Part shown: piece after piece, positions 27,559-46,912 of the stretch
How the letters are laid out: each line of letters starts with the position of its first letter
Position numbering within the stretch: position 1 is the first letter of the stretch
From: an uncultured bacterium
GTDB taxonomy: Bacteria; Acidobacteriota; HRBIN11; JAKEFK01
Direction: 5' to 3'
DNA length: 64,000 bases
NCBI GenBank assembly: GCA_963837395.1
Contig: CAWINI010000003.1
Coordinates: 771,805 to 835,804 of the forward strand
Made by a program: the position numbers and the translations under genes
Notes under the pieces: model-generated
Database searches by the model: none
Told to the model about the DNA's origin: nothing
The model's input: only the letters and a program-made list of their open reading frames with translations

Positions 27559-27560
27559 AT

Positions 27561-27616
27561 ACGTAATACGTAAAACGTAAAACGTAATATTACGTTTTAC
27601 GCATTACGTTTTACGT
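27561..27616. repeat. Palindromic heptamer array (ACGTAAW)x4 + (WTTACGY)x4
   Basis: Two abutting 28-nt arms that are near-perfect reverse complements, between accB and accC. Confidence 0.9.
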
Positions 27617-38957: not shown

Positions 38958-39083
38958 GTACAGTACAGAGGGTAGTACTATAACCTTTAATCCTAAGTTT
39001 GTAGTACTACTAATCAATCGTAATCGTAAATCGTACTCTTACTCGTAATCCTTCTCTATTTTAGTTGTGATTTTGCTTTTTGA

Positions 39084-40773
39084 TTACTTCTGCAGATTCC
39101 GTGTCAGCCTGCTTTCGGCGAGAGTTTCTACGTAGCTTTTAATTCCGCGAGCGAGCCCCTGGGCAATGGTCTGCCGGTAACCTGAAGTTTCCAGAAGATT
39201 GTATTCACCTTCATTACTAATGAATGAAATTTCAGCAAGAATGGAAGGCATTTGCGCTCCAATCAAAACATAAAATGGGGCTTGTTTTACACCGAGATTG
39301 TTCGCAGCATATCCTTTTTGAAGATGTCCCACCAGATTGGTTTGAATCAGCTTTGCAAAGTCGCGTGACTCCTCAATTTTTGTATTTAACGCAATTGCAG
39401 TAGTGAGTTTCTGGAGTTCACCCATATTCTTTTCTGAAATTGCATTTTCGCGTGCGGCAACTTCCATTGCTTGTGGTGTTGTTGCAAAATTCAGGTAATA
39501 CGTTTCTATGCCTTTTGCTTTTTTATTGCGGCTTGAATTGACATGCACCGAAACAAATAAATCAGCTGACTTGCTGTTTGCAAACGCCGTACGTTCTTCA
39601 AGCGCAACATAGTCATCCTCAGTTCGTGTCATCAGCACTTCGTAACCATATTCCTGTTCAAGAATGCCTTTTAGTTTTTGCGATACATCCAGGGTTATAT
39701 CTTTTTCTTTCATTCCGCTGCGCATTGCACCAGGATCATGACCTCCATGACCAGGATCAAGAACAATTCTCCGAACAGTAAGCCCGAGCTGTCGAGCAAG
39801 TGAATATTGCCCGGTAGTATTCGTCTTTGCCATTTCTGGAGTTTCATTTTGATCAACTGTAGTTTCTTTATCGGACCTCAGTTGTTACTTGTGGTGCGGT
39901 TGGAACAGGTGCAACTGCAGCAACAGGAGTTTTCTTTCCTTGAATATCAATAACCACCCGATATGGATGATACAAAGAAAAGATTTCAAAGTTTTCAATG
40001 TTTTTTAAATCAAGAACGACGCGAGCTTTTCGAAAAGTATTTTGTCCGACACGAATTTGTTTTAGAAACCCATCATCGACTGAAAACTGTTGTTCGAGAA
40101 GCTCTTTGAATGCGACAGTGTTGTCAAAATCAACATAAAGTCGATCTGGATTCATCAATCGATCTCTTTTGAACGGGACTTCTTTGTCAAAATCCAGAAC
40201 CACTCGCGTATAATCCGGACCAGTATAATGTCTTAAACTTTTCAGCGTTGCCGGTTGGGTCGCAGTTGCTGAAGATTCCTTTAAAACAGTCTCTGCCATT
40301 CTTGGTGAGCGTTCTCTTAATCGCTCCTCCATCACCTGTGATTCATTTTCCTGGTTCAGCTCATCTCTCATAATCCTTATGTATTCCAACATTGCTTCTT
40401 CTACTAACGAACTGGAACCATACTGTTGAATCAAGAATTCATAGGTGCTGCAGGCACGATGAAGATACAGATTGTCATTGAAACGGCGTCCCATTTCAGC
40501 ATACAAACCGCCTACATGGAATAATGAATTGTCGCAATATCCTGACGATGGATTGTTGTAATAAACTTTGCGATAAGCTTCAACAACTTTTTTCCATTCC
40601 GAAATTTGAGCCTGATTATCTCCGGATTTTTTTAGAGCTTCTTCCAGCTTAACCGCTTGATCGTAAAGATCTTTTGCATTGGAATTTGCTGCAGATAGAG
40701 ATGTAGACACCAATAGTAACGAAAGAATTAGAAAAGACACCCTTCGGAGAATCATCCCTATCGTCTCCAACAC
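39084..40773 (-). CDS. N-acetylmuramoyl-L-alanine amidase (TPR + AMIN + Amidase_3), split by a probable artefactual frameshift near 39873
   Basis: ORF 39868-40773 has the signal peptide, TPR and AMIN domain (YTRVVLDF, NPDRLYVDF); ORF 39084-39833 has VLDPGHGG, ADLFVSVHVN and MPSILAEISF; the linker reads open across the gap in the second frame. Confidence 0.88.
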
Positions 40774-40837
40774 TAGCCCCGCATTTCTATTTTTTAGATT
40801 CTAAGCAGAGCTTACCTCAATGTATTCAATGAGTTGA

Positions 40838-40866
40838 ATCATACCTTGGGCATAGCACTATGTCAA
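40838..40866 (-). promoter_or_regulatory. Consensus sigma70 promoter of the amidase gene
   Basis: TTGACA-N17-TATGAT. Confidence 0.75.
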
Positions 40867-40876
40867 GCATACTACA

Positions 40877-41005
40877 GAGGATGGGGGATAGAGAATGGAG
40901 AATGGAGGATTGAGAATGGAGGATTGAGAATGGAGGATTGAGAATGGAGGATTGAGAATTGTTAGCTCACTATCGTCAATCCTCTATTCTCTATCTTCCA
41001 TCCTC
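40877..41005. repeat. Heptamer tandem array (GAGAATG/GAGGATT, 12 units) followed by about 4 inverted units
   Basis: Read directly at 40877-40960; inverted CAATCCT CTATTCT CTATCTT CCATCCT at 40977-41004. Confidence 0.92.
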
Positions 41006-41007
41006 TT

Positions 41008-41913
41008 TTATTTCCGCGGGTGTGAACGCTGATACGTCTTCAACAATTGTTCTACGTTCAGGTGAGTATACTTTTGGGTTGTTGAAAGGCTGGCGTGGCC
41101 GAGAAGTTCTTGAATCCAGCGAAGGTCGGCACCGGCGTTAAGTAAATGGGTGGCAAAACTATGGCGGAAAGAATGTGGAGAAACGCGTTTTTGCATTGCC
41201 AGCTTCAACAAATACTGATTCAGAATTTGTCGAATTCTGGTTTCGCTCAAACGACTGCCGTGCAAATTCAAAAAAATCCATTCAGGAGTTTGCTTATCGA
41301 TTAACTCATGCCGCCTGCTCAAGTAACGTTTAACCGCAGATGCAGCAGTTGATCCGAAAAATACAGTTCGTTCTTTCTTACCTTTACCTGTAATCCGCAT
41401 CACTCCCGATTCCGGATCCAGATCGCGCAACCGCAACCCTGCAATTTCACTGACACGCATTCCGGTCGCGTACAAAAGTTCAAAGATTGCATGATCCCGA
41501 TCCCCTTTCGCTGTATCTTCAAATTCAAAATCCAGGAAACTATTGATTTCATGAACCTGAAGAACACCTGGTAATTTCTTTGGCAGCCGCGGGCTTTTTA
41601 CTGCCTTTGCAAAATTTTGAGCAACATAATTTTGCCTGCACAAAAATCGGAAGAATGAACGTAGACAGGCTAATTTCCTTGCGATACTGGCGCGGTTAAA
41701 TTTCTGCTGATACAGGTGATTGATAAATCCGCGGATCGCAAGTAAATCAAGATCGCTGACAATTGAATCATCATCTATAACATCTTTGCCAAGATACTCA
41801 TTTAAGAAACCACAAAACTGCTGCAGATCTTTCATGTAGGCAAGAATTGTGTTTGCCGAATATCTTTTTTCAATCCGAAGATGTGATTCAAATTCGGAAA
41901 GATACTTTTGCAC
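41008..41913 (-). CDS. xerC: Tyrosine recombinase XerC
   Basis: LLYATGMRVSE, TGKGKKER, HSFRHSFATH, LGHASLSTTQKY; in the dprA-topA-trmFO-xerC context. Confidence 0.9.
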   Translation of the reverse strand: MQKYLSEFESHLRIEKRYSANTILAYMKDLQQFCGFLNEYLGKDVIDDDSIVSDLDLLAIRGFINHLYQQKFNRASIARKLACLRSFFRFLCRQNYVAQNFAKAVKSPRLPKKLPGVLQVHEINSFLDFEFEDTAKGDRDHAIFELLYATGMRVSEIAGLRLRDLDPESGVMRITGKGKKERTVFFGSTAASAVKRYLSRRHELIDKQTPEWIFLNLHGSRLSETRIRQILNQYLLKLAMQKRVSPHSFRHSFATHLLNAGADLRWIQELLGHASLSTTQKYTHLNVEQLLKTYQRSHPRK

Positions 41914-41926
41914 GACAACTATAATA

Positions 41927-43273
41927 CTACATGAAGATTGAAGATGGAGAATTGAGGATTGAAAACTGATCTGCGAATTGGCGAATGGAAGCTAAGGCCC
42001 GTTCAACGAGTAGTTGTTTCTTACGCTGCTTATCTTTGATCATTTGAAGATCCGGGGCATGGAGCAAGCCGAATGTAATATTCATCGGTTGAAAGTGGTC
42101 GGGATCTGCATTGGAAATGTAATGAGCAAGAGCGCCGATAGCCGTTTCCGGTGGCGGAACATGCAAAGGCAGGTCGAGTGCCAGCCGCGCAGCATTGATC
42201 CCCGCAAGCAATCCTGAAGCAGCAGAATCCACATAACCTTCTACGCCGGAAAGTTGTCCAGCAAAAAAGAGCTGAGGATTGGTGCGGGTTTGATATGTAG
42301 GAAGCAAAATTTTCGGAGCATTCAAGTAAGTATTTCGATGGATCCAACCGTAGCGGATAAATTCAGCATTCTGAAGTCCGGGGATCATCCGGAACACACG
42401 TGCTTGTTCAGAAAAACGCATGCTGGTCTGAAATCCCACCATATTATAGTGTGATGCTGCCAGGTTATCCTGTCGCAACTGAACCACCGCAAATGGACGC
42501 CGGCCAGTAACAGGATCGATCAAACCGATTGGCTTCATTGGACCAAAACAAAGCGTCTTCTTTCCGCGCCGGGCCAGTTCTTCAATCGGCAAACAGCCTT
42601 CAAAAAATATTGCCTTTTCGAATTCCTTCAGCGGATGCGTTTCAGCTTTGAGCAATGCATCATAAAAACTGTCATACGCCTCACGACTCATCGGACAATT
42701 CAGATAATCATCACTGCCCTTTCCGTATCGGGAGGCTGCAAAAACAATGGAGCGATCAATTGAATCTGCATCAACGATCGGTGAAATTGCATCGTAATAA
42801 TATAAATGAGGGGATTGGCTAAATTCTTTGATTGATTCTGCCAAAGGTTCCGAAGTCAGCGGCCCGGTTGCAATGATATTAATTCCATCTTGCGGAATCG
42901 AAGTCACTTCTTCACGTATCATTCTCACATTCGGTAGTTTTCCCAAAGTTGCTTGAATTTTTTCAGCAAACACATCGCGATCAACTGAGAGCGACATTCC
43001 GGCTGGAACTGCACTTTGATCAGCCGCAGCGATAATCAAAGACTGGAGGATGCGCATTTCCTCCTTTAACAATCCTGGCGCATGAAGCAGATCGTTGGAT
43101 TTTAAGGAATTGCTGCAGACAAGTTCAGCAAGATTGTCTGTAACATGTGCTGGAGTTTTGCGCCCAGGCCGCATTTCATAGAGATCTACGTCCAGCCCGT
43201 GCCTGGCAATCTGCCATGCCGCTTCTGCGCCGGCAAGTCCGCCACCAATGACACGTATTTTTGCTTTAGGCAT
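41927..43273 (-). CDS. trmFO: Folate-dependent tRNA (uracil-54) methyltransferase TrmFO (Gid)
   Basis: IGGGLAGAEAAWQ, ELVCSNSL, YNMVGFQT and AGQLSGVEGYVDS motifs. Confidence 0.95.
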   Translation of the reverse strand: MPKAKIRVIGGGLAGAEAAWQIARHGLDVDLYEMRPGRKTPAHVTDNLAELVCSNSLKSNDLLHAPGLLKEEMRILQSLIIAAADQSAVPAGMSLSVDRDVFAEKIQATLGKLPNVRMIREEVTSIPQDGINIIATGPLTSEPLAESIKEFSQSPHLYYYDAISPIVDADSIDRSIVFAASRYGKGSDDYLNCPMSREAYDSFYDALLKAETHPLKEFEKAIFFEGCLPIEELARRGKKTLCFGPMKPIGLIDPVTGRRPFAVVQLRQDNLAASHYNMVGFQTSMRFSEQARVFRMIPGLQNAEFIRYGWIHRNTYLNAPKILLPTYQTRTNPQLFFAGQLSGVEGYVDSAASGLLAGINAARLALDLPLHVPPPETAIGALAHYISNADPDHFQPMNITFGLLHAPDLQMIKDKQRKKQLLVERALASIRQFADQFSILNSPSSIFM

Positions 43274-43300: not shown

Positions 43301-45714
43301 TTATTTTGCAGCAGGTTCGGGCTGGGCTTCAAGTTCGATCTGGAATTTGCATTCCTTATCGTTGCATTCTAAATAAGGAGGGCCGCCTTTCCTGAATTTT
43401 TCCAGCATAAATGGAGCATGACAAGCCGGACATTCACGCACAACAGGTTTATTCCAAAGTGCGAACGTACAATCAGGATAATTCGCGCAACCGTAAAATA
43501 TTTTTCGACCCTTTGTGCGTTTCTCAACTAAATCGCCACCATCATCGGGACATTTCACATCCAGAGTCTTTGGCTTGATGTACTTACATTCGGGATAATT
43601 ACTGCAAGCGATGAACGGACCGTACTTGCCTTGTTTTACAACCAGCTCAGCTCCGTCCTGTGGACATTTTTCATTGGGAACTTCAAGCGAACCAATTTCA
43701 GCCTGTTTTTTCGTTAGTGTTGCAGTAAATTTGCATTCTGGATAACCGGAGCATGCCAAAAACTTTCCGTATCTTCCAACCTTTACAACCAGTGGCTTTC
43801 CACATTTCAAACATGTATGCTCCGATTCGGTTCCTACTCCACCTAAAGTTTCGTTTGGCTGCTCATCCGGATTTTGTGTGTATTTGCATTCTTCATTCGT
43901 GCAAGTCAGGAACGCACCGAATTTGCCCCAACGCTTTACCATTGCGCTTCCACATTGCGGACATTTTGTATCTACTGGGATTCCAGTTGCTTTGATTTCT
44001 TCCATTTCATCGTACGCACGTTTTAAGTCGCGTGAAAAATCACCGTAAAATTCATTCAGGACTTCAACCGTTTGCTTGGTACCTTCTTCGATCTCATCAA
44101 GCTCATCTTCCAAATGAGCGGTGTATTTGAAATCCATGATTTCGTCAAAATGCCGGACTAAAAGATCGGTAACCAGGAATCCAAGATCAGTTGGTTTGAA
44201 TCGATTGTCTTCTTTGATCACGTAACTGCGATTCTGGATCACACCCAGAATCGTTGCATAGGTTGAAGGACGTCCGATCTCCTTTTCTTCAAGTTCTTTC
44301 ACCAACATCGCTTCTGTAAAGCGCGAAGGCGGTTGCGTAAAATTCTGTTTGGGTTCGAGCCGGTCAAGACGTAATTCTTCTCCGGGCTCAACAACTGGAA
44401 GCGAAGGTGGAGTTTCTTCAACAGCTCCTTCTATTGGAGCTTCTGAAGTTTCTTCTTGATAAACACGAATGAAACCTGGAAATGTCATCACCTGTCCGCT
44501 TGCTTCGAATTCATAATTCTTGGCTTCAACAGTAATGATTGTTTCATCAAACAAGGCTGCCTTCATTTGTGATGCTACGAAGCGGTTCCAAATCAGGGAA
44601 TAGAGCTTGAATTCATCACGGCTCAAATAATTTTTTACACTTTCCGGAGTACGCAACACCGATGTTGGACGGATTGCTTCATGCGCATCTTGAACGGATT
44701 TTTTGTTTTTGTAGAAGTTTGGCTGATCCGGCAAAAATTCTTTACCGTACTCAGTGACAACGTAGTTCCGCGTTTCTTCTAAGGCAATCGGTGAGATGCG
44801 AACCGAATCCGTACGCATATATGTGATCAGACCTACGGCGCCTTCATCACCCACTTCGATACCTTCATATAACTCTTGCGCCACCATCATTACTTTTTTA
44901 ACTGGCCATCGGAATTTCCGCGATGCTTCTTGCTGCAATTTGCTGGTGATAAACGGAGCTGATGGATTCCGCTTCCGCTCTTTCTTTTCGACATCTTTTA
45001 CTGTGAAAAGTGCCCTATCCAGATCAGCTAGAATTTGTTCGGCTGCTGCTTGATTGGAAATTTCTGTTTTCTTTCCACCGATGCGAACTAATTTCGCGGG
45101 AAATATCGGTGGCTCTGAACCTTCCAGAAAAGCGGTCATCGTCCAATATTCTTCCGCAATGAAGGCTTGAATCTCTTTTTCGCGGTCGCAGATCAGCCGA
45201 AGTGCAATCGATTGAACTCTGCCGGCGCTAAGTCCACGTTTTACTTTTTGCCACAGAAGCGGCGAAATCTTATATCCCACTAAGCGATCCAATATTCGCC
45301 TGGCTTGTTGAGCCTGGACCTTCTTCTGATCAATTTGAGTGGGATTTTCAAAAGCCCGTCTTACTTCTTCTTTGGTGATTTCATTTAAAATTACACGATG
45401 AATCGGCTTTCCATTTCCTAATTCCTCAGAAAGATGGAAACTGATCGCTTCTCCTTCCCGGTTCCAGGATCAGGCGCAAGGAAAATATTTTTTGATTTCG
45501 ACGCTATTTTTTTCAGCTCTTTTACAAGATCGGTTTTTCCCCGAATAATTGTATAGTGCGGCTCAAAACTCTTCTCTTCATCGACACCAAGCTTGGATTT
45601 AGGCAAGTCTTTGATATGCCCCAAACACGCTTTGACAACGTAGTCGTTGCCCAGGTATTTGTTAATCGTTTTTGCTTTGGCTGGTGATTCCACCACCACT
45701 AAAGATTTGGCCAT
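43301..45714 (-). CDS. topA: DNA topoisomerase I with C-terminal Zn ribbons; frameshift near 45463, probably an artefact
   Basis: [13 protein letters not shown] in 45418-45714; removing two bases (GGAAC to GAC) restores the TOPRIM motif DPDREGEAI; [16 protein letters not shown] and C4 zinc ribbons downstream. Confidence 0.95.
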
Positions 45715-46873: not shown

Positions 46874-46901
46874 CTTGCATCTTGCATCCCGCATCCTGTA
46901 T
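46874..46901. repeat. Short heptamer array (CYYGYAT)x4 between the divergent dprA and GWxTD genes
   Basis: CTTGCAT CTTGCAT CCCGCAT CCTGTAT. Confidence 0.7.
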
Positions 46902-46912
46902 CTTTTCCAAAT

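Follow-up and report, generated by a model that had tools for sequence, protein, structure and literature searches.

What is a run of a dozen purine-rich heptamers doing between the tyrosine recombinase gene xerC and the promoter of the gene that follows it? The window analysed here – 64,000 nucleotides (nt) from the genome of an uncultured member of the Acidobacteriota (6.0 Mb, 43-44% GC, 96% complete; hereafter G000) – contains a topA–trmFO–xerC–AMIN–Amidase_3 region in which every gene lies on the minus strand (Table 1), and its spacer downstream of xerC holds an array of 7-nt units of the form GARRATD, set in two inverted arms of unequal length. An earlier note, made from the letters of the window, had taken this array for a slippage-prone variable-number tandem repeat (VNTR) that might tune the amidase promoter or terminate the topA operon. 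The VNTR stood up to comparison with relatives and the two proposed functions did not; missed altogether was the membership of the array in a dispersed family that is tied to cassettes carrying genes of the 23S_rRNA_IVP family (PF05635; IVP for short).

The array after xerC is one copy of a genome-wide hairpin-repeat family, not specific to xerC. Taking all evidence together, we read it, with a probability of about 0.7, as a persistent, slippage-prone and gene-less copy of a selfish or neutral dispersed hairpin repeat.

Architecture of the array

Direct reading and Tandem Repeats Finder (TRF) both agree with the 12 forward and roughly four inverted units that had been counted after xerC. In the promoter-side arm, GAGAATG and GAGGATT units alternate (n = 12 as assembled), and TRF places this arm at 40876-40959, with six copies of a 14-nt period or 2.2 copies of a 28-nt period (100% match, score 124). 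A perfect 14-mer, repeated 4.4 times over 62 nt, makes up the loop-adjacent part at 40898-40959; the surplus units of G000 are this run of perfect 14-mers, and the promoter-proximal units are degenerate. The gap of 10 nt that the earlier note had given between the end of the array and the -35 box of the TTGACA-17-TATGAT promoter is likewise correct.

A genome-wide family of heptamer foldbacks

About 570 heptamer arrays, mostly intergenic, occur in the 6.0-Mb genome. TRF returned 537 period-7 rows genome-wide, compared with 211 of period 6 and 283 of period 8; the intergenic share amounts to 68% for period-7 and 76% for period-14 rows, as against 18-23% for periods 10-12, where intergenic means the roughly 11% of the genome without long open reading frames (ORFs), gene positions being taken from a simple longest-ORF call. 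Several unit families coexist – AGATGCT, AAAACGT, AATGCGT, AGAGGAT (which is the GARRATD family), AAATCTG and ACTCAGT – and an inverted partner lies at most 40 nt away for 119 of the 375 intergenic arrays. The foldback stems have a median length of 27 bp, or about four units, with 88% Watson–Crick pairs.

The GARRATD family itself comprises some 37 loci. Among its clear foldbacks the purine-rich arm comes first in 13 of 13, and the reverse order occurs in none. Canonically, 4+4 units enclose an interior of about 10-18 nt, and several such copies sit between tRNA genes; the copy after xerC, with 4+12 units, is an expanded form, as are others with 9+5, 3+7 and 6+4. This copy is built of tandem heptamers of one unit family in inverted arms of the fixed polarity, and it has the general marks of the heptamer arrays: tandem 7-nt units that are over-represented, mostly intergenic, paired and variable in length between relatives.

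One spacer, many occupants

The 90% cluster of TrmFO gave access to 13 contigs of close relatives (L and G numbers other than G000 denote the related contigs and genomes compared), in which the spacer downstream of xerC has been filled in strikingly different ways. Where G000 has GARRATD arms of 4+12 units, 4+6 are found in L101, in L201 = L202 and in L206 = L210, with 4+~5 in L203, 3+10 in L204 and 3+9 in L205; the equals signs join identical alleles from independent samples. L200 has a different foldback with a 70-nt interior, and L209 an empty spacer of 34 nt; G002 and G004 are empty here as well. In L198/L199 and in L207, arms of GAATGAT heptamers enclose a complete PF05635 gene of 124 aa. 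Counted over six lineages, the promoter-side GARRATD arm has 12, 10, 9, 6, 6 and about 5 units, and the interiors of these orthologous alleles measure 10-45 nt. L204 and L205, whose flanking genes are identical, differ by exactly one heptamer, which – together with the overall range of 5-12 units – bears out the idea of a slippage-prone VNTR.

Could the 12-unit arm instead be an expansion introduced by the assembly? Near the array, at least one probable 1-nt indel error or frameshift does occur in G000, but the array is only 84 nt long, below the length of any read type, and the independently assembled relatives have the same architecture with 5-10 units, two pairs of samples having yielded identical alleles; an artefact is therefore very improbable.

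Replacement of one occupant by another is quick. In a tree of the flanking DNA the nearest kin of G000 are L200 and L207 (94% identity), and these two, although about 99% identical to each other, have two different spacer occupants. The family as a whole conserves two blocks, that of the promoter (TGTAGTAnnC followed by TTGACA...) and TGTAGTATTATA ahead of the xerC start; what lies between each of them and the preceding coding region differs in almost every genome. The spacer between tRNA-Val and tRNA-Asp presents a similar picture: six genomes have there a foldback of inverted tandem short-unit arms, clearly of 4+4 heptamers in several, and in five of the six the spacer measures 86-91 nt. Each of the six has a different unit family, even though AAATCTG-type arrays occur in G000 beside GARRATD ones and G001 carries GARRATD copies at other sites. 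The xerC and tRNA-Val/Asp spacers are hot spots of rapid replacement, not of slow drift in place, and the array after xerC is a true VNTR at such a hot spot of hairpin-cassette turnover.

Foldback arms around 23S_rRNA_IVP genes

The connection between gene-less foldbacks and cassettes shows elsewhere in the genome. Inside a GARRATD pair at C4:961157-961717 lies an ORF of 130 aa with a match to PF05635 (23S_rRNA_IVP) at 1.9e-27 and a weak one to bAvd. PF05635 genes occur at 10 loci in the genome (11 matches), and at 8 of the 10 the gene is enclosed by inverted arms whose tandem units are short (mostly 7 nt) and belong to a unit family of their own in each case. Two of them – at C4:961297 and, broken, at C4:968471 – are enclosed by GARRATD arms, in the same polarity as in the gene-less foldbacks. 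For each of the largest gene-less families (AGATGCT, AAAACGT and AGAGGAT) there is an IVP cassette whose arms match. IVP homologues at least 59% identical, found in G004 and G001 (two other genera of the family), also have GARRATD arms, and homologues at 35-43% identity have arms of other unit families. Genes of the GxxExxY/PDDEXK_3 type are likewise nested in foldbacks, but of units of about 8-9 nt. The xerC copy, with no PF05635 gene between its arms and an interior of only 17 nt, is a gene-less relative of these IVP cassettes. In the literature search no paper was found that ties heptamer arrays to 23S_rRNA_IVP genes: PMC4679880 does not contain 'intervening sequence', and no such link was seen in the part of PMC4692102 that was covered.

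A broken GARRATD-armed IVP cassette lies upstream of one shared neighbour gene in the genus's two species, G000 (C4:968423-968808) and G001 (C1:655546-655856). The neighbour, whose product has the N-terminus MSVLVDE..., is presumably sucD, and the two broken cassettes represent one old, decaying orthologous copy.

These associations invite a bolder and tentative proposal, on balance doubtful: that the Avd-like four-helix-bundle 23S_rRNA_IVP proteins act as specificity factor for hairpin-ended cassettes of a class not yet described. The GAATGAT-armed cassette occurs in two non-sister lineages (L198 and L207) and is 95% identical between them over 244 nt, as against 90-91% for the flanks. If the proposal were true, heptamer-armed foldbacks would be put in place, exchanged and left over by such cassettes at preferred sites, in tRNA spacers and immediately behind stop codons; the surplus of heptamer repeats long noted in the genomes of bacteria would be accounted for, and the xerC spacer would be an allelic series running from empty through gene-less foldbacks with 5-12 units and another foldback to the full cassette.

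xerC as a bystander

The earlier note had also pointed out that xerC is bracketed by one heptamer family, and five related units do lie at 41933-41967, in the 3' end of trmFO; 35-nt arms, 83% complementary, are present on both sides of the gene. The bracketing as such is nothing special, one same-family pair within 2 kb comparing with 0.43 expected (P = 0.36), and IVP cargo genes are flanked by arms of the opposite polarity. Inverted arrays that are both kept in several relatives might still suggest recombination sites, or the ends of a mobile or invertible xerC unit. Such a role is extremely improbable: the topA–trmFO–xerC order is conserved in all relatives, xerC is unchanged in L198 and L200, which lack one or both arrays, and no xerC with both arrays was seen in relatives elsewhere in the genome or inverted. 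Of the other GARRATD-family loci, 35 are unlinked to any recombinase. Because the neighbourhood is conserved, the arm polarity reversed and one such pair expected by chance, xerC is a bystander, located between two elements and not inside one.

The units in trmFO encode the last ~10 residues of TrmFO (FSILNSPSSIFM), past the conserved end of the protein: homology stops at ...RQFAD and is followed by a genome-specific tail of 9-20 residues from whatever repeat lies there. Close relatives have this same heptamer arm as their tail, and in P0013 it is three units (7 aa) longer, with SSILNPP added in frame; L198/L199 have a different foldback in place of this array. Direct reading of the units shows no stop in any frame of the pyrimidine strand, and TGA or TAG quickly on the purine strand. 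Since only the pyrimidine-strand reading is free of stops, one arm extends trmFO and the other supplies or abuts the stop of xerC. The units in trmFO would represent a solo arm of the GARRATD family that, being open in frame by chance, became the TrmFO C-terminus, and the locus is an example of repeats rewriting the C-termini of proteins.

Promoter context

The promoter that had been assigned to the amidase gene is present, although the first gene after it is the AMIN-domain ORF, the Amidase_3 ORF coming only behind that. Were the array a contingency locus, the number of units upstream of the -35 box would tune the AMIN/amidase promoter, as the TTTTGAT heptads do at Vibrio cholerae ctxAB – a suggestion prompted by the proximity of the array to the -35 box (10 nt) and by the differing unit numbers of close strains. 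The newly added, perfect units, however, are loop-proximal, some 30-90 nt from the -35 box, whereas the promoter-proximal ones are old and degenerate. In all relatives, conservation of the promoter block begins 10 nt upstream of the -35 box, whether the occupant is the array, another element, the IVP cassette or nothing; the block's 10-nt TGTAGTAnnC portion marks the edge of the variable spacer and is conserved, with the promoter, in L002-L006, L101 and L198-L210. Nor do the 36 other GARRATD-family loci have a consistent promoter location. With new units added at the loop and the promoter block conserved beside every occupant, tuning of the promoter is unsupported and, in our estimate, quite unlikely. 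Nothing shows a dedicated switch for the amidase promoter, and an annotation of the array as a regulatory switch of the local genes would be unwarranted.

The TGTAGTA block directly adjoins both variable spacers, at 40867-40876 ahead of the amidase -35 box and at 41918-41929 ahead of the xerC start. At C2:840556 of G000 a further heptamer array is followed by TGTAGTA-N3-TTGACA, and intergenic DNA contains 84 of the 414 copies of TGTAGTA, an enrichment of about 2-fold. The scan for TGTAGTA also uncovered a dispersed repeat, distinct from the heptamers and with the conserved core AAAAAACAACGAAACAAATGTTTGTAGTACGGAT, at a minimum of 8 loci of G000 (at least; e.g. C3:44582, C3:119152 and C3:416040). 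In the leader after the -10 box (window 40805-40832), the motif CATTGA-N3-CATTGA is conserved in G000, G001, L101 and L198-L210 but not in the family's other genera, and may serve the amidase gene as an operator or leader element.

A possible role at the 3' end of the transcript

The main rival to a repeat of no local use concerns the RNA. The hairpin might mark the 3' end of the topA–trmFO–xerC message – as a terminator lacking a U-tract, as a stabilising 3' stem, or as an RNase III site that uncouples xerC from the amidase gene. It starts 2 nt past the xerC stop, and minus-strand RNA of the array folds well (-42.7 kcal/mol, z = -4.3, many registers being nearly equivalent). Across the genome, foldbacks tend to lie right against the stop codon of the upstream gene, a hairpin of some kind is present in this spacer in most relatives, and intervening sequences of rRNA with similar stems are substrates of RNase III (PMC4990558).

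Termination of the topA operon, as the earlier note had proposed, is nevertheless unsupported: no terminator-like site was called at the array on the minus strand, where the stem is followed by CUGUAGUAUGC and lacks a U-tract, and convergent genes show no excess of foldbacks between them, the 62 intergenic foldbacks being divided into 45 between co-directional, 13 between divergent and 4 between convergent genes (about 10, or about 16%, expected for the last). Mismatches in the stems, read on the sense strand, consist of 32 G.U and 49 A.C pairs, and it is, unexpectedly, the antisense strand that folds better (30 vs 15 elements, P = 0.004). The asymmetry between G.U and A.C runs the wrong way and gives no sign of selection on a sense-strand RNA hairpin, which was rejected as support for such a role. 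In addition, G002, G004, L104 and L209 have no hairpin in the spacer. Rfam 15 gave no match at gathering score, only sub-threshold matches to microRNA precursors, that is, to generic hairpins. All in all, a role at the 3' end of the message seems unlikely.

Proposed origin of the xerC copy

As a gene-less copy of a dispersed hairpin repeat, the array would have arrived as, or alongside, a hairpin cassette of the IVP type at a preferred site right after a stop codon, and would then have persisted in a genus-level clade. In the lineage of G000, slippage during replication or unequal recombination of the 14-nt double unit may have enlarged it from about 6 units to 12. It would have no dedicated regulatory task; its RNA, predicted to form at the 3' end of the topA–trmFO–xerC message a hairpin some 28-30 bp long, could by analogy with rRNA intervening sequences be a plausible substrate of RNase III.

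Several observations weigh against this origin. At 13 GARRATD loci there was no consistent flanking direct repeat, nor was a target-site duplication seen. Local alignments of the interiors of the gene-less alleles with the L198 cassette and with both GARRATD cassettes of G000 were no better than those of shuffled sequences. The IVP cassette at the orthologous spacer has GAATGAT arms, which means that it is not the direct parent of the xerC copy. Finally, the array may act locally, in the processing of RNA or as part of the promoter's surroundings.

Deletion of a cassette was considered as the source of the gene-less alleles and was not demonstrated, the interior alignments having scored like shuffles. 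Filled and empty sites are too diverged to align. No REP-associated tyrosine transposase (RAYT) is apparent, PF01797 being unmatched in G000 (96% complete).

Other features of the window and further arrays

Table 1. Features of the xerC region, in window coordinates
Feature	Position	Strand	Remarks
topA	43301-45292	-	
trmFO	41927..43273	-	3' tail made of heptamer units
Solo arm, 5 units of GARRATD family	41933..41967	-	inside trmFO 3' end
xerC (tyrosine recombinase)	41008..41913	-	PF00589 1.8e-48, PF02899
xerC stop codon	41008-41010	-	
xerC-side arm, 4 inverted heptamers	40978..41005	-	end 2 nt from xerC stop
Foldback interior (loop), 17 nt	40961..40977	-	
Promoter-side arm, 12 heptamers	40877..40960	-	GARRATD on + strand, HATYYTC on transcribed - strand
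Sigma-70-type promoter TTGACA-17-TATGAT of AMIN/amidase gene	40838..40866	-	11/12 consensus matches
AMIN-domain ORF	39868-40773	-	first gene after promoter
Amidase_3 ORF	39084-39833	-	separate ORF beyond AMIN ORF

AMIN and Amidase_3 form a single gene of 551-563 aa in all close relatives. In G000, a 1-nt insertion at 39833-39872 relative to L200 (96% identical here) splits them into two frames, which is either a real frameshift or an assembly error.

The window has further heptamer repeats. A palindrome at 27559-27616 consists of about 4+4 ACGTA-type heptamers (the AAACGTA family), a unit family that also brackets an IVP gene at C2:491517 of G000, and arrays of the AATCGTA/ACTCGTA type and the CTTGCAT type lie at 39016-39050 and 46874-46904, respectively; the families of these arrays are represented at other places in the genome by IVP cassettes or by many copies without a gene. 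Among distant members of the phylum, long heptamer arrays adjoin xerC in L007 (downstream of the gene), in L017 and in L014 (GGTGAAT many times; CCATCCA; CTCTATA), and heptamer arrays look widespread in Acidobacteriota.

Comparison with known systems

In many bacteria no other long simple repeats are as over-represented in the genome as heptamers, whose origin is unexplained, and the proteins of PF05635, a very widespread family, have no known function. The xerC spacer, occupied in close relatives by nothing, by gene-less hairpins of varying unit number or by a complete PF05635 cassette, amounts to a natural experiment and makes a link between the two testable.

The closest heptamer-repeat systems include the short tandemly repeated repetitive (STRR) sequences of cyanobacteria, the TAACTGA repeats of Beggiatoaceae (PMC4679880) and the intergenic arrays of Xanthomonas (GGGAATC) and Nostoc (GGGGAYT) described by Rehm et al. 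2015 (PMC4692102), a paper that also cites Mrazek 2007 for an excess of heptanucleotides. The Xanthomonas and Nostoc arrays are intergenic, often in inverted pairs, near the upstream ORF and variable in length between relatives. Ours resemble them in the 7-nt unit, in being ~70-90% intergenic, in convergent pairs able to form stem-loops, in lying closer to the upstream than to the downstream ORF and in varying in both length and sequence among close relatives; even the units are alike (GGGGATT there, GAGGATT here). The present arrays differ in having several unit families per genome, a canonical size of 4+4 and arms that bracket 23S_rRNA_IVP genes, the last a link absent from the papers searched.

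With the TTTTGAT repeats of V. cholerae ctxAB the array shares heptamers upstream of a promoter in strain-dependent number. Those repeats are activator binding sites inside the promoter (bioRxiv 10.1101/2021.05.14.444153), whereas the array described here is one hairpin arm of a dispersed family, with its variable units far from the -35 box.

Like repetitive extragenic palindromes and their composites (REP/BIME/REPIN) and MITEs (miniature inverted-repeat transposable elements), the foldbacks are short, palindromic, multi-copy intergenic repeats that come and go at orthologous spacers and are sometimes absorbed into the 3' ends of genes. Unlike them, they have no RAYT (PF01797) and no target-site duplication that could be seen, and their stems consist of expanding and contracting tandem units; as regards MITEs in particular, inverted arms are present, without a consistent flanking direct repeat at the 13 loci.

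Leptospira has ORF-bearing intervening sequences in its 23S rRNA. So does Coxiella burnetii, whose S23p intervening sequence is regarded as selfish and has a stem that is a substrate of RNase III (PMC4990558). The foldbacks have in common with these intervening sequences a long stem formed from inverted ends, which in the rRNA elements encloses a PF05635 gene. The xerC copy, by contrast, stands between protein genes (xerC and AMIN), is gene-less, and has arms made of tandem heptamers in variable number.

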